From: Bacteroidales bacterium UBA1715
GTDB taxonomy: Bacteria; Bacteroidota; Bacteroidia; Bacteroidales; UBA1715
NCBI GenBank assembly: GCA_002317135.1
Contig: DCIX01000041.1
Location: forward strand, 4,529 to 68,528
Reading direction: 5' to 3'
Length of the DNA: 64,000 nt
The notes below the pieces were generated by a model. That model saw nothing but the letters and a program-made list of their open reading frames with translations, did no database searches and was not told the origin of the DNA. A program made the position numbers and the translations under genes. Shown here one piece after another: positions 3,141-42,304 of this stretch (position 1 is its first letter; every line of letters starts with the position of its first letter).

Positions 3141-4373
3141 ATGACAACATATTTAAACGCATTATGGCACATTACAAGCGAAATGGCGCCATATTTATTA
3201 CTTGGATTTCTTGTTGCTGGCGTACTTCATGTACTTGTACCACGCAATTTTTATTCTAAATATTTATCAAAAGATAATTTTGGTTCAGTTTTAACCGCCG
3301 CCCTACTTGGTATTCCCCTACCACTTTGTTCATGTGGGGTAATTCCAACCGCCATAGGTTTACGTAACGAAAAAGCTTCGAAAGGTGCCGTTGCTTCATT
3401 TCTGATTGCAACTCCACAAACAGGTATAGACTCAATTATTGCAACGTTCTCGCTTATGGGAATTGCATTTGCCGTTGTACGCCCTATTGCCGCTTTAGTA
3501 ACCGGTATCTGCGGAGGTATGCTCGTAACATGGCTTTGCGCAAAAGACAAATTTGATACAACAGAAGAAAATAACACTGCGACTCAAAAGAAACAAAAGA
3601 ATGCATTGTTAGCAATTCTACAATATTCTTTTGTGGATATGATACAAAGCATAGGCGGACGTTTGTTTTTAGGCTTATTATTGGCTGCACTAATACAAAT
3701 AGGTATTTCCGACGACTTCTTCCTAACCTACGGCAATGCTCCTCTTCTACAAATGCTTGTAATGTTGGTTATTGCCATTCCTATGTATATATGTTCAACC
3801 GGTAGTATTCCTATTGCTGCAGCATTGTTAGCCAAAGGATTAACACCTGGTGCCGCATTGGTTTTACTTATGGCTGGTCCTGCCGTAAACCTTGCTTCTA
3901 TTATGGTTGTGAAAAAAGCCATGGGTATGAAATTCACCTTGATTTACGTAGGTAGCGTTGTACTTGGAGCTATATTATTCGGTTTGACCTTAAATAACTT
4001 CAACGGTTTGCTATCGTTCACACAGACAACAGCAGAGCACTGTTGCGAGGTTCATGAAGAACAAACATCATGGTTTACAATTATTTGCACAATTTTTCTT
4101 TTATTACTAATATTAAACGTATTTATCATGGGTATTTTTAGTCGATTCAAAAAACAACAAGTTGAAGCTTCTGAAGTATTGTATTCAGTTGAAGGTATAG
4201 ATTGTAAACACTGTAAAGCCGCTGCCGAAGCCGCATTAGAAAAAGTTGCCGGCATAGAAGCAATAGAAATCAACCTTGAACAAAAAACTGTAAAAATAAA
4301 AGGAACAGCTTCTGAATCAGATATTTCTGCTGCTATCGAAAAGGCTGGATTTACATTTAAAGGTAAAAAATAA
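3141..4373 (+). CDS. multi-pass permease with C-terminal heavy-metal-associated domain (Cu/Zn efflux-type, DUF318/ArsP-like)
   Basis: Hydrophobic permease with PLCSCGVIP motif. C-terminal HMA domain YSVEGIDCKHCKAAAEAALEKVAGIEAIEINLEQKTVKIKG. Confidence 0.8.
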   Translation: MTTYLNALWHITSEMAPYLLLGFLVAGVLHVLVPRNFYSKYLSKDNFGSVLTAALLGIPLPLCSCGVIPTAIGLRNEKASKGAVASFLIATPQTGIDSIIATFSLMGIAFAVVRPIAALVTGICGGMLVTWLCAKDKFDTTEENNTATQKKQKNALLAILQYSFVDMIQSIGGRLFLGLLLAALIQIGISDDFFLTYGNAPLLQMLVMLVIAIPMYICSTGSIPIAAALLAKGLTPGAALVLLMAGPAVNLASIMVVKKAMGMKFTLIYVGSVVLGAILFGLTLNNFNGLLSFTQTTAEHCCEVHEEQTSWFTIICTIFLLLLILNVFIMGIFSRFKKQQVEASEVLYSVEGIDCKHCKAAAEAALEKVAGIEAIEINLEQKTVKIKGTASESDISAAIEKAGFTFKGKK

Positions 4374-5152: not shown

Positions 5153-5225
5153 GCGAGAGTAGCTCAGTTGGTAGAGCACAAGCTTCCCAAGCTTGGGGTC
5201 GCGGGTTCGAGCCCCGTTTCTCGCT
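5153..5225 (+). tRNA. tRNA-Gly (anticodon CCC)
   Basis: Hand-folded 73-nt cloverleaf. Acceptor gcgagag/ttctcgc, D arm gctc-agttggta-gagc, anticodon stem caagc/gcttg with loop ttCCCaa, T arm gcggg-ttcgagc-cccgt, discriminator U. Confidence 0.88.
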
Positions 5226-5259
5226 CTTATCCCCCAACACTTACAAAACCAAGAAACAA

Positions 5260-5430: not shown

Positions 5431-5458
5431 GTAGAGACGGTGTGCACACCGTCTCTAC
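5431..5458. repeat. REP copy 1: 28-bp perfect palindrome GTAGAGACGGTGTGCACACCGTCTCTAC
   Basis: Exact match, intergenic. Confidence 0.95.
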
Positions 5459-5545
5459 AAACAACGTTCACGTTCAATATACACTGCCATTATATTGACA
5501 ACACAGGGCATGTGACAATGACGCATGGGCGGAATTTTACCGCAT

Positions 5546-5573
5546 GTAGAGGCGGTGTGCACACCGTCTCTAC
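5546..5573. repeat. REP copy 2 (one arm mismatch: GTAGAGGCGG...)
   Basis: 27/28 match. The A-to-G change at position 7 gives a G:T pair in the hairpin. It lies 10 nt beyond the stop of the RAYT fragment. Confidence 0.9.
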
Positions 5574-5583
5574 CATTACGATG

Positions 5584-5871
5584 CTATTCAGTGTTTAATT
5601 CATCATTCTGCCAGGTTACAACATTTTTTTCAATATATTCCGATATGCGTTTGATTTCATCCTGATTGCGTATAATATGGTCGTGGAAACGGGTTTGCCA
5701 AACGAATGGAATGTTGTTTTGGTTGGCATAATTGGTAATGGCACGTTTCAGGCCACCTATAACAACAGATAAATGCCCCTTGTTTTTAGAAATAGTTTGC
5801 ATTTTATCATTCACCACATCCGATTTCCTACGTTCACCCGTAGAGACGGTGTGCACACCGTCTCTACTCAT
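5584..5871 (-). pseudogene. C-terminal half of a second, diverged RAYT (IS200/IS605-type Y1 transposase) gene, beginning exactly at a REP
   Basis: SRDGVHTVSTGERRKSDVVNDKMQTISKNKGHLSVVIGGLKRAITNYANQNNIPFVWQTRFHDHIIRNQDEIKRISEYIEKNV aligns with residues ~120-212 of the intact RAYT at 9173-9811. The N-terminal and HUH parts are missing. Confidence 0.75.
5840..5867. repeat. REP copy 3
   Basis: Exact 28-bp palindrome. It forms the 5' end of the RAYT fragment and lies 11 nt from the hsdR stop. Confidence 0.95.
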
Positions 5872-5878
5872 TTTTATT

Positions 5879-8800
5879 CTAACAATACCTCTTAAAATTC
5901 TCAGCCTGTTCTATCACTTTGTCATACACATCTTCAGGATGGTCCTCGGCTGGCGGATACTTATGTTTAGCCATAATCACGATTAAATCGAACTGCATTT
6001 CCGACATGATATCAGCACGCTTAAAGCAGTCGGTATAATGGGTTTTGTCGGCTATAATCGCTTTCATTTCCTTAGCAATCTCAATCATATTTTCATCTGG
6101 ATAATCAAAACCTCGTTCATCACGAACAGATTTTAGAATATCGAAAAATGCTTTTTCCTCATAATCTATACCAAGATCTTCATGAGACTTGCGTTCTTTG
6201 TCTAATTCCTCCATCATCTTCTTAATGTCGTCAACCACTTTTTTCATTACTTCAGTTACGTTGGCAACATCGTCGCTGCGGTCGTTATACGTGCGAATGA
6301 TTTCGTTTAAACGCTCGCCAAACACAATAGACTTGACTTTGTTCACTTTTCCGAATTCTGAAATCTGCTGTTTCACCAAGCGTTCCAACATGCGAAGTCT
6401 AATGTTTGGCAGATTTATCTTTTCTATACAATCGAGATGTTTCTTGTCGAAAATATCAAGGTCACCTTTTGTATCTTCCACTATCTTCACAACTTCTTCC
6501 ACACCGCTACTAACAAGAGCATCGGCTACTAATTTTCGAACACGTTCGTTCATCTCGGCTACATCGGGTGCATCGCCTTTGGTCATTTTGAATACAATGG
6601 AACGAACTGCGGTGAAGAACAACACTTTCTCTCTATGTATTTTATGCAAATTCTCGCTTGACGAACACATATTAAATGCCTGACGCATACGTTTCGCATG
6701 ACCCATAAACAAATTCTTACGTTCCTCTTCTTCCAATACAAAGTTTGCTCCTCCATTTAAGCATTGTAACTGTTTTAGAGCACTTTTTGCAAAGAAATCT
6801 TTATAATCGTACTTGTGCATAATGCCGTCGAGCACTTCGATTTCGTCTTTAACTATAGTAACAAGTTCGTCTATGCCTTCGGTTGGATCATCTCCACCAT
6901 CGCCTTTATCTGTACCATATTGTTTGAGGGCCTTGTTCATATTGCGTTTAATGCCGAGATAATCGACAACAAGACCTTTTTCTTTTCCCTCGCACACACG
7001 GTTTACACGACTGATGGTTTGAATAAGCGTATGTCGTTGCAATGGTTTGTCAACATACATAGTGTCGAGACTCGGAACATCGAAACCGGTGAGCCACATA
7101 TCAACAACTATCACTATTTTAAAGTTTGAATGTGGTTCTTTGAACTGACGTGCCCACTCTTGACGGTCGGCTTTATTGCCAAGCAATTTCGATAATTCCG
7201 GAACATCGTCTTTGTTGGTAGTCATCACCATTTTTACACGTTCCATTGGCAGAAGTTTGTCTTTTTCGTCTTCGGCAAGTTCAAACTCTGATGCACATGG
7301 TAGTTTCTTTGCCCATTCAGGACGAAGTGCTATGATATTTTTATATAAGTCGAAAGCTATTTCACGCGACGAACACACCACCATTGCTTTTCCGCACACG
7401 GTTGCTCCTTCGGCTATGCGTTGTTCGTAATGCGCAACAAGGTCTTCTGCAACTTTTTGCAAACGTTTTGGATCACCAATAATAGCATCCATCGTGGCAC
7501 TTTGCTGCTTGCTTTTGTTTATCTGTTCCTCGGTGCTTCCTGCATCCTCACATTCTTCATAATACTTGTCTATTGCTTCCAATTTTTCGTTGTCGGCAAA
7601 AACTTTGGCAGCACGACCTTCATAAACAATTCGCACAGTGATTCCATCGTTTACCGAATCGACCATAGTATATTTATCTACCACACCGCCAAACACGGCA
7701 ATGGTTTCGTCGATTGGTGTTCCTGTAAAACCGACATAGATTGCATTCGGCAACGAATTGTGCAGATATTGTGCAAAACCATACGTAGTTTTCATTGCGG
7801 TTGCCATACCATCTTTATCGAATGAAATCCGGGTTGATTCCTCCAAATTGGTTTGGGTACGATGTGCCTCGTCGCTTATGCAGATAATGTTTTTGCGATC
7901 GCTCAGCAGATTAATATCTTCCGAAAATTTCTGTATCGTGGTTAGAAACACGCCTCCACTTTTTCGACCGTTCAGTTTCTTGCGTAATTCTTCACGGCTG
8001 TCTATTTGTTCGATGGTTTCGTCGCCAATAAATTTTTTAGCACGGATAAACTGACTTGAAAGCTGGTCGTCGAGATCGGTTCTATCAGTTATAAGCAAAA
8101 TAGTCGGTGACTCCAGTTCGGTTGAACGCATCAACATTCTGCTCAAGAAAAGCATAGCCAAACTTTTACCACAACCTGTAGCGCCAAAATACGTTCCTCC
8201 TTTTCCATCGCCAATCTTATGATGTTCCAAAATGTTTTGGTACAACATAGTAGCAGCAAAATATTGCGGATAGCGGCATACTATCTTCTCTTCTTTGGTA
8301 CTTGAATCAGGGAAATAGATAAAGTTGCGCACAACTTCGAGCAAGCGTTCTTTGCGAAACAAACCGTGTACCATTGTAAAGAGGGAATCAAGTCCGTTAC
8401 TTGGCTTGTCCTCCGGTTCGATACGATTCCATGCATAGAAATATTCATATGGAGTAAACAACGAACCAAATTTATTTTGTGCTCCGTCGCTTATCACGAC
8501 AAATGCATTGTACCGGAACAAACTTGGAATATCTTTACGATACCGAACAGTGATTTGCGTAAAAGCATCTTTTATAGTACAATGTTCCTTTACAGCTGTT
8601 TTGAATTCCATCACCACCAACGGCAAACCGTTTACATACACAATAGCGTCAGGACGACGGTTACACACCTCAACAATCTCAACCTGATTCACAATTTTGA
8701 AATCGTTGTTTTGGGGATGGTCGAAATCTATCAATCGAATCCATAATGGTTCCTTCGTAGAGACGGTGTGCACACCGTCTCTACCATCATCCAAACCTGC

Positions 8801-9082
8801 GACCTCCCTACGCAACGGGAAACCCTCGACAATCATCTGCATTACACGGCGGTTTTCGTCGTATAGATTTTGCGACTGTTGTGCCTTGAGCATAAGGATT
8901 ACCTGCTGAATTTCTTCCTCGGTTATATCAGCATAGTGTGCACGCAAATAAGCCTCTATATCCTCAACAAGAAGAACCTCGGCCAAGTTTTTATGTAACT
9001 GTTCACCTAATTTATGTGTATAGTGCTCTTCGTCTCTGAAGAGCTCCATTATTGCATTTTCAAGTGTGGATTCGTTAAACAT
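5879..9082 (-). CDS. hsdR: type I restriction endonuclease subunit R (system 1)
   Basis: 1067 aa. N-terminal PD-(D/E)xK-like DAIVYVNGLPLVVMEFK, Walker A GATGCGKS, DEAH box ICISDEAHRTQ. Carries an in-frame REP-encoded RDGVHTVST at residues 101-109. Confidence 0.93.
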   Translation of the reverse strand: MFNESTLENAIMELFRDEEHYTHKLGEQLHKNLAEVLLVEDIEAYLRAHYADITEEEIQQVILMLKAQQSQNLYDENRRVMQMIVEGFPLRREVAGLDDGRDGVHTVSTKEPLWIRLIDFDHPQNNDFKIVNQVEIVEVCNRRPDAIVYVNGLPLVVMEFKTAVKEHCTIKDAFTQITVRYRKDIPSLFRYNAFVVISDGAQNKFGSLFTPYEYFYAWNRIEPEDKPSNGLDSLFTMVHGLFRKERLLEVVRNFIYFPDSSTKEEKIVCRYPQYFAATMLYQNILEHHKIGDGKGGTYFGATGCGKSLAMLFLSRMLMRSTELESPTILLITDRTDLDDQLSSQFIRAKKFIGDETIEQIDSREELRKKLNGRKSGGVFLTTIQKFSEDINLLSDRKNIICISDEAHRTQTNLEESTRISFDKDGMATAMKTTYGFAQYLHNSLPNAIYVGFTGTPIDETIAVFGGVVDKYTMVDSVNDGITVRIVYEGRAAKVFADNEKLEAIDKYYEECEDAGSTEEQINKSKQQSATMDAIIGDPKRLQKVAEDLVAHYEQRIAEGATVCGKAMVVCSSREIAFDLYKNIIALRPEWAKKLPCASEFELAEDEKDKLLPMERVKMVMTTNKDDVPELSKLLGNKADRQEWARQFKEPHSNFKIVIVVDMWLTGFDVPSLDTMYVDKPLQRHTLIQTISRVNRVCEGKEKGLVVDYLGIKRNMNKALKQYGTDKGDGGDDPTEGIDELVTIVKDEIEVLDGIMHKYDYKDFFAKSALKQLQCLNGGANFVLEEEERKNLFMGHAKRMRQAFNMCSSSENLHKIHREKVLFFTAVRSIVFKMTKGDAPDVAEMNERVRKLVADALVSSGVEEVVKIVEDTKGDLDIFDKKHLDCIEKINLPNIRLRMLERLVKQQISEFGKVNKVKSIVFGERLNEIIRTYNDRSDDVANVTEVMKKVVDDIKKMMEELDKERKSHEDLGIDYEEKAFFDILKSVRDERGFDYPDENMIEIAKEMKAIIADKTHYTDCFKRADIMSEMQFDLIVIMAKHKYPPAEDHPEDVYDKVIEQAENFKRYC
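8757..8784. repeat. REP copy 4, inside the hsdR coding sequence (in frame)
   Basis: Exact palindrome. The offset from the hsdR ATG is 298 nt, so it is read as G-RDGVHTVST. Confidence 0.95.
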
Positions 9083-9148: not shown

Positions 9149-9176
9149 GTAGAGACGGTGTGCACACCGTCTCTAC
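9149..9176. repeat. REP copy 5, overlaps the RAYT stop codon
   Basis: Exact palindrome. The minus-strand GTAG supplies the TAG stop (9175-9173) of the RAYT ORF. Confidence 0.95.
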
Positions 9177-9811
9177 AGACGATATTCATCCAATTGCCAT
9201 TGTGCAACATTATTTTCGATATATGTGGCAATACGATTCAATTCATCCTGATTACGAACAATATGGTCGTGAAACCGTGGTTGCCAGGCGAATGGAATAT
9301 TGTTGGTATTGGCAAAATGGGTAATGGCACGTTTCAAACCACCGATAACAACAGACAATTGGCCCTTGTATTTAGAAATGTTTTGCATTTGTTCGTTCAC
9401 GACATCCGATTTCCATCGTTCATCCGTAGAGACGGTGTGCACACCGTCTCTACACGTACCGCCATCGTTTTCGTTTACCATATTGAATACCCCATCAATA
9501 ACAACAATTGCATGAATATGGTTGGGCATTACCACAAACAATGGTATTTCGGCGTACGGATAATGCGATTGTACGTTTACAAATTGTTTGTGGGCGTATT
9601 GACCAATTGGGGATAATTGCATCTGTGATTCAGGTATTACCATTCCCGTAGAGACGGTGTGCACACCGTCTCTACAATCGGTTGTTATTTCCCCGAAATA
9701 ATGTTCACGATTTTTGGTGCATATCGTTATAAAATATACGCCGCCGTTGTATCCGTGCCACGGCGCACGTGCCGATGATACACGGTATTTGTTTTGAAAT
9801 TTTTCTGCCAT
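9173..9811 (-). CDS. REP-associated tyrosine transposase (RAYT; IS200/IS605 Y1 HUH family)
   Basis: FQNKYRVSSARAPWHGYNGGVYFITICTKNREHYFGEI N-terminus, HUH motif MPNHIHAIVVI (H98/H100), C-terminal RFHDHIVRNQDELNRIATYIENN with candidate catalytic Tyr197. Two in-frame REP insertions encode CRDGVHTVST at residues 46-55 and 120-129. Confidence 0.85.
   Translation of the reverse strand: MAEKFQNKYRVSSARAPWHGYNGGVYFITICTKNREHYFGEITTDCRDGVHTVSTGMVIPESQMQLSPIGQYAHKQFVNVQSHYPYAEIPLFVVMPNHIHAIVVIDGVFNMVNENDGGTCRDGVHTVSTDERWKSDVVNEQMQNISKYKGQLSVVIGGLKRAITHFANTNNIPFAWQPRFHDHIVRNQDELNRIATYIENNVAQWQLDEYRL
9426..9453. repeat. REP copy 6, in frame inside RAYT
   Basis: Exact palindrome, read as C-RDGVHTVST (residues 120-129). 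Confidence 0.95.
9648..9675. repeat. REP copy 7, in frame inside RAYT
   Basis: Exact palindrome, read as C-RDGVHTVST (residues 46-55). Confidence 0.95.
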
Positions 9812-9951: not shown

Positions 9952-9979
9952 GTAGAGACGGTGTGCACACCGTCTCTAC
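9952..9979. repeat. REP copy 8
   Basis: Exact palindrome, intergenic upstream of RAYT. Confidence 0.95.
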
Positions 9980-10145
9980 AATGCGGTGCAAATGGTTACG
10001 AAATATATTCCCCCATTATAATTATGCCAATTGGCACGGGCCGACGGTACGCGATATGTATTTTTGAATGTATCCATTGTTTCGTTTATTTTATTGTTAA
10101 CACATTGTGCGATTTGCCATGACCGTTATCGTTTTCCAGCCCCCC

Positions 10146-10173
10146 GTAGAGACGCGATTAATCGCGTCTCTAC
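10146..10173. repeat. REP variant with swapped palindromic core (GTAGAGACG-CGATTAATCG-CGTCTCTAC)
   Basis: The outer 9 bp of each arm are identical to the consensus. The central 10 bp GTGTGCACAC is replaced by CGATTAATCG, and the whole is still a perfect 28-bp palindrome. Confidence 0.9.
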
Positions 10174-10198
10174 AACATTTCCAATTTTTGTTCTGCAC

Positions 10199-10226
10199 GT
10201 AGAGACGGTGTGCACACCGTCTCTAC
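10199..10226. repeat. REP copy 10
   Basis: Exact palindrome, 25 bp from the variant copy. Confidence 0.95.
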
Positions 10227-10336: not shown

Positions 10337-11848
10337 TTATATCTTTAGGTAATCCATAAATAAAGAATCTATACTCCATGAATCTGGGACCAATACTTTT
10401 TCATCTGGTTGAATTTGCATATTCTTACATATGGTTATATACTGCTTTGGTATATGAAACCATTGGTAAATTTTATTCTGTAGTTCTTTAAATGATATCC
10501 TTTCGCAATCATTATATGATGGTGTTACCTCCAATAATTTTTTACCTTCTTTCGATATACTACTCATTGCGATAATCTCTTCTTCTTCATTGAGCCAATT
10601 TTTAATTTTCGTTTTCTTAAAAACAAAATCCAGTGGTATAGCAACAGGATTAAACTTAGGTACAAAAAGTAAATAATTAGAAAACGGTTTCAAAACTTCA
10701 TTGATAAAGTCAAAAGACATTTTGTATTTTTCATTTTCAGACAAAGAGCATATTTGTTCTAAATAAAACGCCTTTAAACCCGACATTCCACGAAAAGTAG
10801 AATCATGATTAAAAAACATTTCAAACAAAATACCATTCAATAGATGATTTTCTTTATCAATTATCCAGTTATTCAAAAATCTCTCTAATTTACACTGTGA
10901 ATTGAATATTTCGCCAATCGTTCTTTCGCCTCCCACTGCCACTTGCAAAATGTTTCTTCCTAAAAGAAACTGTTCATTCCTATCTGGAAAATCTGTAGGT
11001 GTTTTATCAAGTATTACTTTGATAGCTGGTTCTTGAGTATACCAATTACAAGACTTCAAACTATATATGATTTCCGAGAAATCGCTCCCATTATTTGTAT
11101 ACAAAATGTCTTTGACAACATTCTCTTTATAAGGAATAGTTTTAGAAACATTTATATTACTACCATTATTAAAGCAATATTTTCCAATTAAAGATGTATG
11201 TTCCCATGACAGCTGTTTTTCATTAGTCAAACTATACACAGACTCTCTAACTCTTTTGAAACAATCTTCAATAGTGATATTCGGAACTCCAATATGCGTC
11301 AATAAAGCCTGTGTATATATACTATTTTCTCCAGGAATTCCATCCGTGGCAGTTTCTCCCGGAGATGTCGAAAAGGCAATTAAAGAACCTTTAGGAGCAT
11401 ATATTGGCGCCAATCCATTAGACACAACACTTCTATTACCTTTAAAAGGATTATCTCTACATGCATCTAGCACAAATATTTTTACCCTTACATTAACTTG
11501 ACAGATATCTTTTATTATTTCGTCAAATGATATAGCAGTGTATTTCGCAGAAGATTCATCTTCAACCGAAGCATCTATTGGCAATAAATAATTTTTACCA
11601 TCTACTTGTATTCCATGTCCAGAATAAAAGAATAAAGAAACAACATCTTCCTCTGTTGATGTAATTTTACTCTTATATTCAGATATTATCTTGCTGAATT
11701 CAGATTGCTTGAAATCTGTAGATAACAATACGTCAAATCCTAAATTCTCCAACTTTGATTTGATATCTTGCGCATCTTTAACCGCATTGTTAAGTTTTGT
11801 TGTACATTCATAATTGTTATTGCCAATAACAAGAGCATAAGACCTCAT
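10337..11848 (-). CDS. caspase-fold (peptidase C14) protease with uncharacterised ~270-aa C-terminal domain
   Basis: N-terminal ~230 aa start YALVIGNNNY and carry the catalytic His in FFYSGHGIQ (H78) and catalytic Cys in FVLDACRDNPF (C130). I recognise no motif in the C-terminal half. The gene starts 15 nt after the hsdS stop on the same strand and is markedly AT-rich. Confidence 0.85.
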   Translation of the reverse strand: MRSYALVIGNNNYECTTKLNNAVKDAQDIKSKLENLGFDVLLSTDFKQSEFSKIISEYKSKITSTEEDVVSLFFYSGHGIQVDGKNYLLPIDASVEDESSAKYTAISFDEIIKDICQVNVRVKIFVLDACRDNPFKGNRSVVSNGLAPIYAPKGSLIAFSTSPGETATDGIPGENSIYTQALLTHIGVPNITIEDCFKRVRESVYSLTNEKQLSWEHTSLIGKYCFNNGSNINVSKTIPYKENVVKDILYTNNGSDFSEIIYSLKSCNWYTQEPAIKVILDKTPTDFPDRNEQFLLGRNILQVAVGGERTIGEIFNSQCKLERFLNNWIIDKENHLLNGILFEMFFNHDSTFRGMSGLKAFYLEQICSLSENEKYKMSFDFINEVLKPFSNYLLFVPKFNPVAIPLDFVFKKTKIKNWLNEEEEIIAMSSISKEGKKLLEVTPSYNDCERISFKELQNKIYQWFHIPKQYITICKNMQIQPDEKVLVPDSWSIDSLFMDYLKI

Positions 11849-11863: not shown

Positions 11864-13021
11864 TTACCCCGCCATCACCAACGATAGCAGTTCTGTTAAT
11901 TTATTAATTTCGTTATCTAATATTTTTATATCTTCATCGATGATTTTTGCTTTTGACTCAAAGTCAACGACTAATTTTTCATCTGGAATAACTACAGACA
12001 ATCCAAACAAATCATCTTTCGTTATGCTTCCAAAAACAGTTCCATCTTCATTTGAAACATTGAAATCGTGTTCTTTGGTTTGCAATAGATAATAAATGAA
12101 AGAGTTGCAACCGATTTTGCTACGCAATGCCGCTAAACCTCTACCAATGCAACAATCATGCGGTGCAATGTTCAAATCACCAACAGGAGCACGAACACTC
12201 AACAAGACATCTCCTAATTTAGCTATTCTTGTTGGTGCTGTTGTGTACATACGAATACTAGGGAATCTGTAACCATAATCAGTTCGCCCTTGATAGAAAA
12301 TCATTCCTTCGCTTTTTTCATTGTATGTTGAACCATCCGGAGATTGTCCCATCGTTATCTCTGCCACTTCTCCCAGTGTTCCCATTCTCCACCCTTCCGG
12401 CAGATTCTCCACATCCACATCATCCACAAACATTTTTCTATATAATGCTTGAGCGGCCTCTTCGAGTTTGGCTATGGTTTGTTTGTTGGTGGCAATGCGG
12501 TTTTGAATGGATTGGTAACGCAACACAATGCGGCGCTGTTCTTCGATGGAGGGAACGGGCAACTGTACATTACACATTTCTTCCCAATCAAAAACCTCAC
12601 GAGCACTGCCGTGCGAATGAAAACGTGCATAACGATCAAATTCTGCACGACGAAACCACATCATCAGATATTCTGGTAATAATTGTAGAGACGGTGTGCA
12701 CACCGTCTCTACGGAATCACACATATCTACAATTTCAAACACAACGTATGCCTGCGAAATAATGGCAGGTTCATCGCCTGTATATAATGCAACGGTTATC
12801 TTTTCACCATTACGTGATGTTACTGGTACATAAGCGAATTGGTTATGCTTTACAATCTTGTATGGGCGAAGATCTGTTCCAACCATATTGGCTATGGAAG
12901 GAATAAAAACTTTAGCATTGCTTAATCCCAAAAGATTGGTGCATCGCAAATCACTATTCCTCACGTCCACTTCACGGATATAATCCCCCAGACGTTTATA
13001 TGTAGAGTTGTTGTTTGTCAT
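11864..13021 (-). CDS. hsdS: type I R-M specificity subunit S, two TRDs (system 1)
   Basis: Two target-recognition halves separated by the conserved PSIEEQRRIVLRYQSIQNRIATNKQTIAKLEEAAQALYRKMF region. The preferred start MTNNNSTYKRLGDYI is at 13021; the alternative ORF-track start at 13057 overlaps hsdM. Contains the in-frame REP peptide VETVCTPSL. Confidence 0.88.
   Translation of the reverse strand: MTNNNSTYKRLGDYIREVDVRNSDLRCTNLLGLSNAKVFIPSIANMVGTDLRPYKIVKHNQFAYVPVTSRNGEKITVALYTGDEPAIISQAYVVFEIVDMCDSVETVCTPSLQLLPEYLMMWFRRAEFDRYARFHSHGSAREVFDWEEMCNVQLPVPSIEEQRRIVLRYQSIQNRIATNKQTIAKLEEAAQALYRKMFVDDVDVENLPEGWRMGTLGEVAEITMGQSPDGSTYNEKSEGMIFYQGRTDYGYRFPSIRMYTTAPTRIAKLGDVLLSVRAPVGDLNIAPHDCCIGRGLAALRSKIGCNSFIYYLLQTKEHDFNVSNEDGTVFGSITKDDLFGLSVVIPDEKLVVDFESKAKIIDEDIKILDNEINKLTELLSLVMAG
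12685..12712. repeat. REP copy 11, in frame inside hsdS (alternative reading frame)
   Basis: Exact palindrome. The offset of 345 nt from 13057 means it is read GTA GAG ACG..., giving VETVCTPSL. Confidence 0.95.
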
Positions 13022-13031
13022 CGCAAAGAAA

Positions 13032-14606
13032 TTACAATTTATACCCCAATTCCTCAAACACTTTCTTCACGGCCTTTTTGCTTTCTTCCTCTTGGGCAAA
13101 AAGTTCACGTAATTCTGTTTGAAGTCTGCTCATTGTTTCTTCGTAGCCGGCGTAATCGTCGCGGTTCACAAACTCAATGTATTTGCTTGGCACAAGCGAA
13201 CTATCTTTCAAATCGGTTGTCTTTACTGATTTGCAGAATTCTGGCACATCGGTGTATTCGCCCAAATCGGTGCGTTGCCATTGGTGGAACTTCTTGGCTG
13301 CGTTTGTAATATCGTCCGTGCTGAATGTGGTATATTTCTTTTCGAATGGTTCGCCCCATGTACGTAAATCCATAAACAGTATCTCGTTTGCACGCTCACG
13401 GTATTGGCGTTGCTCGCCGTTTACCGTTGTTGTACGGGCATGTTTGTTACGGTTTAGTATCCACAACGTTACCGAAATGTCGGTAGTATAGAACATATTT
13501 CGTGGAAGAATCACAATAGCCTCCACTGCATCGTGTTCTTCAATCAAAGCCTTACGAATTGCTTTTTCGTCACCATCGCCACTCAATGCGCCATTGGCAA
13601 GCAAAAAGCCGGCAATACCATCGGTAGAAAGCTTTGAGAAAATATTGAGTATCCACGCATAGTTGGCATTGCTTGTAGGTGGTACGGCAAAACCTTTCCA
13701 ACGAGGATCGTCGAGCAGTTCGCTTGATTCGCGCCAATCTTTTTGGTTAAAAGGAGGATTTGCCATAATGTAGTCGAACTTCTCTCCTTTATGCTGATCG
13801 TTTTGGAAAGTACTGGCAGCTTTTTCTCCCAAATTGGCCGAAATACCACGAATGGCAAGGTTCATCTTCGCCAGCTTATAGGTTGTGAGCGTGAACTCTT
13901 GTCCGTAAACCGAAATATCGCGTTTGTTTCCGTTGTGGTTTTCAATAAAACGGCTACTTTGCACAAACATACCACCAGAACCACAGGCAGGATCGTACAC
14001 TTTCCCTTTATACGGTTCTATCATTTCGGCAATGAGATTTACAATAGCCTTAGGCGTATAGTATTCTCCCTTACCCTTACCTTCCTGCAAAGCGAAGTTC
14101 GAAAGACAGTATTCATACACACGGCCAAAGAAATCATTATCTTCGTCCATGTGTTTTTCCATATCGTTCACTACATCGAGCAACGAGCCCAATTTAGCGG
14201 CATCTATACCCAGACTGCTATAATAGTTCGAAGGCAATGCGCCCGCAAGTTGTTTATTGTCTTTTTCTATATCGGCAAGCGCTTTGTCTATAATCTGCGC
14301 AATATTTGGCTGCTTAGCGTTTTGCATAATATAGTTCCAACGACAATGTTCCTGCAAATAGAATACATTATCCTTGCCGTAGGAAACAGGCATTTCGCAG
14401 AGCATATTGCCTCCACCAAATTGTTCTTCAAGTTTTTGGTATTGTTTTTCGAAACGAACACCTGCGTATTTCAAGAAAATCAAACTCAATACAACATGCT
14501 TGTATTCAGATGCTTCTATATTTCCACGTAGTTTATTAGCCGCATCCCATAGTTGTGCTTCAATGGATTTTTCAGTTTTTTTTGCTGTAGTGCTTTTTTT
14601 CGCCAT
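13032..14606 (-). CDS. hsdM: type I R-M DNA methyltransferase subunit M (system 1)
   Basis: N-terminal HsdM domain (LWDAANKLRGNIEASEYKHVVLSLIFLKY), SAM motif I DPACGSGGMF, catalytic motif IV ANPPFN. Confidence 0.95.
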   Translation of the reverse strand: MAKKSTTAKKTEKSIEAQLWDAANKLRGNIEASEYKHVVLSLIFLKYAGVRFEKQYQKLEEQFGGGNMLCEMPVSYGKDNVFYLQEHCRWNYIMQNAKQPNIAQIIDKALADIEKDNKQLAGALPSNYYSSLGIDAAKLGSLLDVVNDMEKHMDEDNDFFGRVYEYCLSNFALQEGKGKGEYYTPKAIVNLIAEMIEPYKGKVYDPACGSGGMFVQSSRFIENHNGNKRDISVYGQEFTLTTYKLAKMNLAIRGISANLGEKAASTFQNDQHKGEKFDYIMANPPFNQKDWRESSELLDDPRWKGFAVPPTSNANYAWILNIFSKLSTDGIAGFLLANGALSGDGDEKAIRKALIEEHDAVEAIVILPRNMFYTTDISVTLWILNRNKHARTTTVNGEQRQYRERANEILFMDLRTWGEPFEKKYTTFSTDDITNAAKKFHQWQRTDLGEYTDVPEFCKSVKTTDLKDSSLVPSKYIEFVNRDDYAGYEETMSRLQTELRELFAQEEESKKAVKKVFEELGYKL

Positions 14607-39967: not shown

Positions 39968-39995
39968 GTAGAGACGGTGTGCACACCGTCTCTAC
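39968..39995. repeat. REP copy 12 (the only copy outside the 5-13 kb block)
   Basis: Exact 28-bp palindrome, 2 nt after the pbpC stop codon. Confidence 0.95.
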
Positions 39996-39997
39996 AA

Positions 39998-42304
39998 CTA
40001 AATCACATGTATCAAAATCGCTCTTCTATTTCCTTTTTCATCTACAATAGACAACACATGGTCTCCTTTGGGAGGAATGATTCCCAACTTATGAGAACCT
40101 TCTGTCTTACCAATATATTCAGTATCTAAATGCCAAAATAACACAGTATTTGGTTTGCGATTAACCGCTTCAAACACAACATGTTCCAACGAACCATCAA
40201 ATCCTCGTGGAACGAATATCGTTGCATTATGTTCCGGATAAATAAAATCTATTTGATCGGCATTTCCATAGTCACAATCCTCACGGAATGGCGGCAACAC
40301 ATGATAATCGGCATGTTTGGTTTTATAATAATACTCCTGTGCCGCAGGAAGAACAAACCATTGCTTTGTTTGAAATTCGTCGACAGTGACACATTGGGAA
40401 TTTACTTGCCACAAACCATCTGTACTTATATGAACTATACGACAATACGGACACTGTGTTGTTTGTGCAGATACAGAAGGTAAAAAAACAGTATCCGTAA
40501 AAGCACAATTTTCTGTTGCTAAACAGCCACTTTGACGACATACGACCATTGTTTCCATATCGGTTGTCGGTTTAACAAACCATTCCGAGTTTTCCAATAA
40601 GGCAAATACATCAAACATAACTGGTGACGCATAGCCAACGCCTGTCATTCCGGCACGACCCTCGCCTGTTGCATTTCCCGTCCATACCCCAACAACATAT
40701 TTCGGCGTTACGCCAACCGACCACGCATCACGACTACCCCAACTCGTTCCCGTTTTCCATGCTATATTTTTCATAGAACGAAATTGCGACCATTCAGCTT
40801 CTTCCTCTGGCCTATTTAATTTCGACATAGCATCAATTGCATACCAAATTGCCGGCTTTGTTAAACGACACTCTTCTGTATCTTTTTCTTTTGACTGTAG
40901 CTGAACCGACAATTTACGATACATCTGGCATAAATCCCACAGTTTTACTTCCACACCACCCAAAATCAACGAAGCACCATAATGGTCTTCATTATAATGC
41001 AATGTGTTCATTCCCAACCACTTTAAATCCTCCATAAACCGTCCGGGACCATGCTGCATAAGCATACGAACCAAAGGTACATTCAATGATTGCACAATAG
41101 CATCGTCGGCGTGTACTGCACCACTAAATGTATGGCTGAAGTTCGACGGCGTAAAACCATTGATAGACAACGGCGTATCGGAAATCAACTGACGTGGAGT
41201 AATCTCGCCACTACTTATCATTGCGGCGTACAAAAACGGTTTGAGCGTACTTCCAGGACTACGTTCACTTTGCACAATATCGACTTGCCAAGCTTCAACG
41301 GACATATCGGTTGTATTACCGACATAGGCAATTGGATTTCCCGTTTCTACATCAAGAACAAGAATGGCAATATTATCTATATGGTTTGAATTATGATACG
41401 AGCGAGCATAGTCGTTCGCCAACCGTTGTACCATAGTTTGCAAGCGAGAATCTATATCGGTTTTTATCTGTTTACCATTATTCTTCTTAGACAAAAAATC
41501 TAAATAATGCATTGCATTATTCGGTATGGCATACGGTTTATCGGGAAGCGGTTCCTCTAAAGCCAAAGTGAGTTCTTCTTCGGTAATAAATCCATTCTCG
41601 TGCAAAGTACGCAACAATCCATCGCGTTTCTTTTGTAATTCCGAACGATTTCGAGATAGATGTATCAATGATGGCGAATTTGGCAAAACCGCAAGGCAAC
41701 ACATTTCCGCCCACGAAAGACGTGAAATCTCACGATTACAATAACGCCATGTGGCAGCATCGAGCCCGACAATATTGCCACCAAACGGAGCATGCGATAA
41801 ATATAAACGAAGAATTTCCTCCTTGGAATGCGTCAATTCTATATCTATTGCCCAGAAAATTTCTACAATCTTATTCCAAACTGTTCGTGGTTGATTTCCT
41901 CTAGCCATACGAGCCACTTGCATAGTCAGCGTACTGCCACCCTCACGACGACCATTTCCGCTCATATTATGCTTACAAGCACGCAGAATAGCAATTGGAT
42001 CTACACCCAAATGTCTATAAAAACGTTTGTCTTCATACTGAATAAGACAAGTTATAAACTTTTCGTTCAAAGAATCTGTTTCCGGAAAACGCCACTGTCC
42101 GTCAGCCGCAATGCGTGCACCAAGCAGTGCACCATTTTTATCCAACAACACCGTCGAGGTTGAATCGCGGAACAATTGCCGTGGCATTACAAGCCAATGA
42201 AACAAGGTAAAAAACAATATGCAACCACATATCAGGATAAGAAAAAAGGACATTAGCGCATGTCCTTTCATTTTTACAAATATCTGATTAGCAAACTGTT
42301 TCAT
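39998..42304 (-). CDS. pbpC: penicillin-binding protein 1C (glycosyltransferase + transpeptidase)
   Basis: GT51 motifs (EDKRFYRHLGVDP, GGSTLTMQ), transpeptidase region SPGSTLKP, and a C-terminal PbpC-type domain. Confidence 0.9.
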   Translation of the reverse strand: MKQFANQIFVKMKGHALMSFFLILICGCILFFTLFHWLVMPRQLFRDSTSTVLLDKNGALLGARIAADGQWRFPETDSLNEKFITCLIQYEDKRFYRHLGVDPIAILRACKHNMSGNGRREGGSTLTMQVARMARGNQPRTVWNKIVEIFWAIDIELTHSKEEILRLYLSHAPFGGNIVGLDAATWRYCNREISRLSWAEMCCLAVLPNSPSLIHLSRNRSELQKKRDGLLRTLHENGFITEEELTLALEEPLPDKPYAIPNNAMHYLDFLSKKNNGKQIKTDIDSRLQTMVQRLANDYARSYHNSNHIDNIAILVLDVETGNPIAYVGNTTDMSVEAWQVDIVQSERSPGSTLKPFLYAAMISSGEITPRQLISDTPLSINGFTPSNFSHTFSGAVHADDAIVQSLNVPLVRMLMQHGPGRFMEDLKWLGMNTLHYNEDHYGASLILGGVEVKLWDLCQMYRKLSVQLQSKEKDTEECRLTKPAIWYAIDAMSKLNRPEEEAEWSQFRSMKNIAWKTGTSWGSRDAWSVGVTPKYVVGVWTGNATGEGRAGMTGVGYASPVMFDVFALLENSEWFVKPTTDMETMVVCRQSGCLATENCAFTDTVFLPSVSAQTTQCPYCRIVHISTDGLWQVNSQCVTVDEFQTKQWFVLPAAQEYYYKTKHADYHVLPPFREDCDYGNADQIDFIYPEHNATIFVPRGFDGSLEHVVFEAVNRKPNTVLFWHLDTEYIGKTEGSHKLGIIPPKGDHVLSIVDEKGNRRAILIHVI

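Follow-up and report, generated by a model that had tools for sequence, protein, structure and literature searches.

The window analysed here, the whole 64,000-nucleotide (nt) stretch of Bacteroidales bacterium UBA1715 (contig DCIX01000041.1, positions 4,529 to 68,528), encodes a type I restriction-modification system whose specificity-subunit gene, hsdS, carries an in-frame insertion of a dispersed repeat. The repeat, a perfect 28-nt palindrome at 12685-12712 (GTAGAGACGGTGTGCACACCGTCTCTAC), is a copy of a double-foot GTAG-type family of repetitive extragenic palindromes (REPs), and it lies in a linker of the first target recognition domain (TRD1) of HsdS. Alleles carrying such inserts show purifying selection. 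We consider it likely that the insert is a tolerated decoration in a functional HsdS protein, with the spacer of the recognition sequence unchanged and the half-site probably unchanged, and we infer that it is without effect on specificity. The genes of the operon and the segment that holds the insert are:

11864-13021, minus strand: hsdS, 385 amino acids from the ATG at 13021, which is the likely start (open reading frame (ORF) 11864-13057); Pfam Methylase_S
12683-12727, minus strand: linker and inserted block, HsdS residues D99-Q113, consisting of a degenerate half-REP leader, a full REP and then AA, in place of a 4-residue linker
13032-14606, minus strand: hsdM; Pfam N6_Mtase (1.9e-93) and HsdM_N
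5879-9082, minus strand: hsdR, intact, 1067 amino acids, with an in-frame REP at 8757-8784 (GRDGVHTVSTKEP)

The assignment of hsdS rests on two TRDs, two long helices (modelled), the Methylase_S domain and the adjacent hsdM and hsdR genes.

The palindrome and its family

The window holds 11 copies of the palindrome at up to 3 mismatches, 10 of them exact and one (at 5546) with a single mismatch; the expected number is zero, as none occurred in 100 shuffles of the window. An additional copy at 10146-10173 keeps the outer arms around a different centre (GTAGAGACGCGATTAATCGCGTCTCTAC). Nine of the 11 copies are clustered at 5.4-12.7 kb, near one full gene for a REP-associated tyrosine transposase (RAYT) and two RAYT fragments. 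Beyond the window the exact 28-mer was found at more than 117 loci in metagenome-assembled genomes (MAGs) of rumen and horse-gut Bacteroidales; the arms GTAGAGACG/CGTCTCTAC are constant across these loci, combined with many, mostly palindromic, centres, and the loci were gathered by an exact-match search, which is biased towards perfect copies. The REP copies of the window, other than the individual copies inside the RAYT ORF, and the genes and fragments of the transposase are:

12685-12712, no strand: double-foot GTAG REP in hsdS; perfect palindrome, RNA hairpin with a 12-bp stem
8757-8784, no strand: REP in hsdR, read as RDGVHTVST (palindrome search and translation)
9149-9176, no strand: REP giving the RAYT stop codon, 67 nt upstream of the hsdR start
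5431-5573, no strand: two REPs (5431-5458 exact; 5546-5573 with one mismatch) between tRNA-Gly and a RAYT fragment
10146-10226, no strand: variant-centre REP (10146-10173) and standard REP (10199-10226)
39968-39995, no strand: solitary extragenic REP, 2 nt past the TAG stop of ORF 39998-42304 (minus strand)
9173-9811, minus strand: RAYT-like Y1/HUH transposase gene with NHIH, WQ and YIENN motifs, in-frame REPs at 9426-9453 and 9648-9675, and a TAG stop from the REP at 9149-9176
5584-5871, minus strand: C-terminal RAYT fragment, immediately downstream of hsdR, with its start at the REP at 5840-5867
9976-10077, minus strand: N-terminal RAYT fragment, cut off at the REP at 9952-9979

The element thus has the GTAG 5' foot, the CTAC 3' foot and the perfect 28-nt hairpin of double-foot GTAG-type REPs, it is dispersed (with 11 copies and a centre variant within 64 kb, and other MAGs contributing more than 117 loci), and it is organized with the transposase as in a REPtron, the REPs both flanking and interrupting ORF 9173-9811 and the two RAYT fragments. 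Furthermore, presence/absence polymorphism of the REP was seen at both hsdS and hsdR, two hsdR homologs being without the in-frame REP GRDGVHTVSTKEP. The cognate RAYT would be the enzyme that mobilized the REPs. The copy at 39968-39995 is the sole one far from the cluster and has the placement of a classic extragenic REP.

An earlier first-pass annotation of this DNA, made from the letters alone, had described the palindrome as being read in different frames in different genes, and on re-reading all of its sequence statements proved correct. In hsdS the minus strand is read GTA GAG ACG GTG TGC ACA CCG TCT CTA, giving VETVCTPSL (residues 104-112), and in hsdR the copy at 8757-8784 gives GRDGVHTVST (context ...DDGRDGVHTVSTKEP...). 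The RAYT ORF contains two copies, both translated as CRDGVHTVST, and its TAG stop (9175-9173) is formed by bases 2-4 of the copy at 9149-9176. All three frames are therefore in use, as had been claimed, but nothing in this points to a special design. The third frame is closed because the GTAG foot carries a TAG, and two open frames out of three is roughly what a random 28-mer would offer (by our estimate, about 0.65 per frame). In a census of 184 palindromes of this arm type, drawn from the window and 117 loci, the two open frames were used 41 and 37 times, with no preference, and three-frame use as a special design was accordingly rejected.

The same census showed 78 of the 184 copies (42%) to be internal to a long open frame, 63 of them in frames of at least 300 codons; to count as internal, a copy had to be flanked by at least 30 open codons on both sides within an open frame of 150 codons or more, ORF length being only a proxy for a gene. 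Four copies provide the TAG stop of a long ORF. By a looser test, which asks for an open stretch of 150 codons or more across the palindrome, the figure is 58% of the copies as against 89% of random positions. Many of the intragenic copies occupy paralogous or orthologous sites (type IX secretion system (T9SS) sorting domains, RAYT genes) and are not independent events.

Recurrent REP insertions in a linker of HsdS

To place the insert we took the 120 best HsdS homologs, of which 102 could be scored at the insert site. In 96 of these exactly six residues separate SQAYxxFE from LLPEY, namely two residues and a linker of 4 residues that is free to vary in sequence (NKQE, NKLE, DQDV, DSEK, DHEQ and others). 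The remaining six orthologs are longer, and all six have a REP peptide at this loop and nowhere else in the protein. In the window protein 15 residues instead of 4 stand between IV and LLPEY, a net gain of 33 nt. The first-pass annotation had been right that the segment is a REP and an insertion, lying in TRD1 directly before LLPEYLMMWF; its size of 30 nt was short of the net length measured here.

At the DNA level an empty allele, P0003, reads GAA ATT GTT GAC CGC GAA AAA TTG TTG, and the filled alleles are longer by different amounts: P0002, the closest allele, by 42 nt, and P0009, with the centre CAAAATTTTG, by 48 nt. The insert of P0070 consists of a half-REP array followed by a full REP with the centre CACGGCCGTG. 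Each filled allele has a degenerate half-copy ahead of the full palindrome, like the arrays found inside RAYT genes. In the window the 15-nt stretch to the left of the REP looks like such a degenerate half-REP, resembling those of P0070 and of the RAYT arrays; it was also considered as part of a general mobile unit, which was rejected since other copies are without it. All filled alleles use one frame, and the AA flank on the 3' side is common to three of the four compared (window, P0002, P0009). The REP peptides at this loop (VETVCTPSL, VETQNFASL, VETHGRASL) are unrelated to one another.

A neighbour-joining tree of TRD1 and the first conserved region (CR1), built with the insert taken out, placed the insert-bearing proteins in three groups: the window, P0002 and L038; P0005, P0009 and P0010; and P0070. 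The nearest relative of the P0005/P0009/P0010 group is the empty allele P0003, and P0070 is nested among empty-site alleles of 85-87% identity. An ancestral segment that was lost elsewhere was rejected given that 96 of the 102 orthologs are without it and that P0070 lies among empty alleles. A single ancient insertion for all filled alleles was likewise rejected for P0070, but may hold for clades A and B, the first two groups, in which the only other member, P0003, is empty. On the basis of this tree, independent insertions at one HsdS loop occurred in at least two lineages, and probably in three, and the TRD1 linker of HsdS appears to be a recurrent landing site for REPs.

Based on these observations we propose that a unit of a degenerate half-REP and a full REP entered hsdS at the linker between the AYVVFEIV strand and the helix LLPEYLMMWF, the former being the final beta-strand in the variable part of TRD1 and the latter a conserved helix. 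The insertion would have been catalyzed by the cognate RAYT-like Y1/HUH transposase, whose gene lies in the same operon at a distance of 3 kb. As the insert is divisible by three in length and has its open frame in register, it could be kept in hsdS, where it would form an extra surface hairpin of approximately 11-14 residues on a specificity subunit that presumably remained functional.

Selection on the insert-bearing alleles

The window hsdS gene and the P0002 allele (locus L118), both of them filled, differ with a dN of 0.057 and a dS of 0.534 over 385 codons, which gives a dN/dS of 0.107. Over TRD1 and CR1 (176 codons, insert excluded) the comparisons among three insert-bearing alleles gave dN/dS values of 0.084, 0.066 and 0.023 at dS values of 0.79, 1.08 and 2.97. 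These ratios show that insert-bearing hsdS alleles are under purifying selection. Furthermore, L038, from a Paludibacteraceae MAG, has the same TRD1, with the identical insert peptide, fused to an unrelated TRD2; the TRD1 and its insert have been shuffled together in the way a working TRD would be.

These results bear on the suggestion of the first-pass annotation that the insertion could abolish recognition. The REPs in both hsdS and hsdR and the RAYT fragments round hsdR do point to heavy bombardment by mobile elements, under which the insertion might have inactivated hsdS or the whole system and left hsdS a decaying pseudogene. Such an outcome is contradicted by the low dN/dS (0.02-0.11 between insert-bearing alleles, at dS of at least 0.5) together with the intact hsdM and hsdR genes, all three hsd ORFs being of full length with complete domain sets (Pfam), and the re-use of the TRD1 and insert module with a different TRD2. 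We regard inactivation as extremely improbable, and a pseudogene was rejected on the dN/dS and on the module re-use.

Position of the insert in the protein

An AlphaFold2 model of HsdS built from 65 sequences (pLDDT 84.4, pTM 0.76) shows TRD1 at approximately 1-158, a central helix at 159-198, TRD2 at approximately 199-347 and a C-terminal helix at 348-384. The insert, residues 99-113, is modelled as a protruding low-confidence hairpin: a strand at 93-97 is followed by two short strands (99-101 and 110-112), the tip between them scoring below 50 in pLDDT, and then by a helix at 116-123; the block 101-110 has a mean pLDDT of 52. A structural model of this kind had been proposed in the first-pass annotation as a way of placing the insert relative to the DNA-binding face and the coiled coil, and it puts the insert in TRD1 and not in the coiled-coil helix. 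The further claim that the insert stands just before the central conserved helix does not hold, since approximately 45 conserved TRD1 residues lie between it and the coiled-coil central helix that starts at 159.

The best solved relatives by Foldseek and hidden Markov model (HMM) comparisons are the T. tengcongensis (TTE) HsdS (5ybb_D, 3okg), 1yf2 and the PacII S subunit (7vru_C), and published contact residues were transferred onto the window HsdS via HMM alignments. The putative DNA loops of TTE-HsdS, S101-T102 and S141-A144, fall on S89-Q90 and A140-V143, and the base contacts of PacII, R75/R76 and H94, on S69/R70 and A91; by alignment to both proteins, DNA-contact residues map to T68-R70, S89-A91 and A140-V143 of the window HsdS. 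In the TRD1 of PacII, the residues that meet HsdM (N121, E128, K136) correspond to R130, H137 and D145. None of these homology-mapped DNA- or HsdM-contact residues is within the insert, which lies at the far end of the beta-strand leading away from the S89-A91 contact loop, a chain topology that suggests a location distant from DNA.

The model also bears on the analogy with EcoR124I/II on which a change of spacer had been suggested. The TAEL repeats of these enzymes belong to the coiled-coil conserved domain D1, and their variation shifts the spacer from N6 to N7 (PMC3874165), and work on PacII describes the coiled coil as a 'ruler' and the TRD loops as tolerating change and yielding specificity diversity (PMC9613975). 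A spacer variant would have its length change in the central coiled-coil helix; the insert at 99-113 is in a TRD1 loop outside that helix, and therefore the TAEL mechanism does not transfer and the analogy fails.

Possible roles of the insert

Several observations weigh against a purely neutral insert made by the neighbouring transposase. The insert starts just 8 residues after the homology-placed DNA-contact loop S89-A91 (from PacII H94 and TTE S101-T102), and stands directly ahead of the helical region which touches HsdM in PacII. The REP in hsdS shows 0 of 28 nt differences in all three pairs of alleles, the surroundings of which differ by 15-21% (at the mean rate, P is approximately 0.001-0.009 per pair for zero differences). 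The window and L038 share an identical run of 74 nt with the REP at its centre (12655-12728), in a background of 83-84% identity. Something beyond protein selection acts on the DNA or RNA, and a neutral decoration leaves the identity of the REP unexplained. Finally, the window RAYT matches the NCBIfam model REP_Tyr_transpos with an E-value of 3.3e-13 and 49.8 bits, below the 80-bit cut-off, and Pfam Y1_Tnp weakly (E-value 0.003, 18 bits versus a cut-off of 23).

The proximity to the contact loop leads to the possibility that the REP-encoded loop alters the half-site of TRD1 or its register, so that filled alleles methylate and restrict another motif than empty ones. That the insert lies in TRD1, that TRD loops tolerate change and generate specificity diversity (PMC9613975) and that the insert has been kept under selection in several lineages are all consistent with this. 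However, the insert is outside the coiled-coil ruler that sets the spacer and at the opposite end of the beta-strand from the contact loop; its low-confidence hairpin is what is expected of a floppy surface loop; and three unrelated peptides at one spot are more readily explained by tolerance than by a new, specific contact to DNA. Moreover, the linker is already free to vary among orthologs with an otherwise conserved TRD1. The first-pass annotation had itself counted a location in an already variable region as speaking against a change in specificity, and this applies in part, as the linker is variable in the 96 orthologs and REPs entered it in at least two lineages. In our judgement a specificity change through the REP insert is unlikely, and decidedly so for the altered half-site.

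The conservation of the hairpin at the DNA level could instead mean that it is kept in hsdS for a role in DNA or RNA, with the peptide as a by-product. It might serve as a binding or processing site for the RAYT, as a mRNA-stability or pausing element in the hsdM-hsdS-...-hsdR transcript, or as a substrate for in-situ replacement of REPs. Besides the absence of differences among three alleles diverged by 15-21% and the 74-nt identical run, the great stability of the REP RNA hairpin (-28.8 kcal/mol in a 68-nt context, z = -5.6) would fit such a role, as would the finding that corresponding sites across loci (the HsdS loop, the region upstream of hsdR, the T9SS C-terminal domain) are occupied by REPs with different centres depending on the genome. 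Taken together, these findings suggest that REPs are homogenized or replaced in situ, or that the hairpin itself is under selection. On the other side, recent gene conversion or repeated homogenization explains the conservation equally well without any benefit to the host, and the exact-match search by which the loci were gathered favors perfect copies. An intrinsic terminator inside hsdS was rejected, since the REP was not flagged in the terminator scan and the hairpin has no T-run behind it. On balance a DNA- or RNA-level role seems rather unlikely to us. The 74-nt run itself could be a recent conversion tract or reflect constraint on an extended structure; its flanks can pair, which lengthens the hairpin in the RNA fold.

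A still more active scenario would make the TRD1 linker a targeted landing pad, at which REPs were inserted and later swapped in situ for the current variant of the genome, with the loop tuning or altering the activity or target of the enzyme. We hold this to be very unlikely; if it were true, mobile elements would drive the variation of a restriction specificity subunit.

The RAYT gene and the surroundings of hsdR

The HUH motif of the window RAYT occurs in the context PNHIHAIV, and one in-frame REP precedes it (after HYFGEI) while another follows it. Some of its homologs reach Pfam Y1_Tnp, and some are named 'REP element-mobilizing transposase RayT' or 'transposase' in their sources. REP peptides, one to three in each protein, occur in 103 of the 120 closest RAYT homologs (P0121-P0240), clustered in two hot spots, one following HYFGEI and the other following the HUH motif. 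These peptides include CRDVARNVST, CRDGVHTVST, VETMCTSSL and others, often in partial tandem arrays; the lengths of the homologs among these hits range from 139 to 323 amino acids, with complete ones of approximately 180-320.

The segment 5584-5871 and the region 9184-9453 form a 270-nt direct repeat (81% identity) that brackets hsdR, which thus has a RAYT C-terminal coding segment and a REP on either side, in direct orientation. This arrangement suggests REP- or RAYT-mediated rearrangement, and recombination between the direct repeats could permit deletion of hsdR. Shortly before the start of hsdR, the intergenic region is occupied by a REP in the window (9149-9176, GTGTGCACAC) and in L119 (at 9586) and L120 (at 8297), with the centre TTGCGCGCAA in the latter two. 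On the left, a tRNA-Gly (CCC) gene at 5153-5226 adjoins the REP/RAYT cluster and the hsd operon, and may be the boundary of an island.

Variable genes of the operon and REPs in other genes

At L122, the locus of P0070, a REP of the local centre family (CACGGYCGTG) is present in both hsdM (at 661) and hsdS (at 3334); together with the hsdS and hsdR copies of the window, this means that each of the three hsd genes is seen with a REP in this operon family. Between hsdS and hsdR lies a slot (10337-11848 in the window) whose cargo varies by relative (L118, L119, L121, L122, L123 and L124 were compared): a caspase-like Peptidase_C14 and the RAYT in the window, and in the relatives a DEAD helicase; Trypsin_2 with AbiGi and AAA_21-RloB; HATPase_c_3 with AAA_15-RloB and RhuM; AbiH; or GmrSD. 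The slot looks like a hot spot for variable defence genes. Of the seven loci, five (window, L119, L121, L122, L123) have a Fic gene called between hsdM and hsdS, and L124 lacks it.

Elsewhere, many rumen Bacteroidales proteins have the REP in frame in their C-terminal T9SS sorting domain; 21 distinct tails of this type were found, of the form VYPNPTNGxLFVETVCTPSLPxETYRITNLMGQ... and with five centre variants, in L054 (60-434 and 581-3736), L009, L021, L025, L026, L047, L049, L052, L056, L057, L058, L069, L102 and others. One L054 paralog is without a REP at this position, and assemblies frequently break or are masked immediately past the T9SS REP.

Implications

The hsdS insert offers a clean, datable case of REP hairpins carried in the long term within a functional gene under selection. 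It also counsels caution in annotation, in that the peptides VETVCTPSL and RDGVHTVST in HsdS, HsdR, RAYT and T9SS sorting domains are REP-encoded, and it draws attention to an unexplained conservation of a hairpin at the DNA level within coding sequence. Should the insert prove to change specificity, REP/RAYT systems would add a novel means of diversifying restriction-modification in gut Bacteroidales.

Comparison with known systems

Elements of this kind, and their in-frame occurrence within genes, are already published; the hsdS host site was not met in our literature search, which found no relevant paper on a REP within hsdS. The insert resembles the difference between EcoR124I and EcoR124II in that a type I specificity subunit is altered in length over a short stretch without loss of frame; unlike the TAEL repeats in the D1 coiled coil, it lies in a TRD1 loop approximately 45 residues earlier.

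GTAG REPs within genes, and the use of their TAG as a stop codon, were reported earlier by Di Nocera et al. (2013, PMC3733652), and intragenic GTAG/CGTC REPs were argued to be neutral because of their location in loops or linkers (PMC3733652). Both these REPs and the Rickettsia palindromic elements (RPE) share with the present case short in-frame palindromes in genes that are probably still functional, and the GTAG ends of the former likewise provide TAG stops. In contrast to the hsdS case, the papers on both emphasize genes for DNA replication and repair.

There is also a close likeness to the double-foot long REPs with 5' GT[AG]G and 3' C[TC]AC feet, which go with TnpAREP/RAYT subclass 2.4 (Bertels group 4) in Bacteroidetes (Quentin et al. 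2018, PMC6006769). The motifs of this subclass are NH[IFV]H, WQ and YIxNNP, and its unique trait is the frame-preserving insertion of REPs within the tnpAREP gene (PMC6006769). This 28-mer and its range in rumen Bacteroidales were not traced in the publications compared, and the tyrosine motif of the window RAYT has a V where subclass 2.4 has a P (YIENNV and not YIxNNP). The feet, the long perfect hairpin, the Bacteroidetes host and the NHIH, WQ and YIxNN motifs are shared, as is the presence of REPs both beside and, in frame, within the transposase gene; the REP peptides in RAYT homologs match the published trait of the subclass, here at very high frequency.

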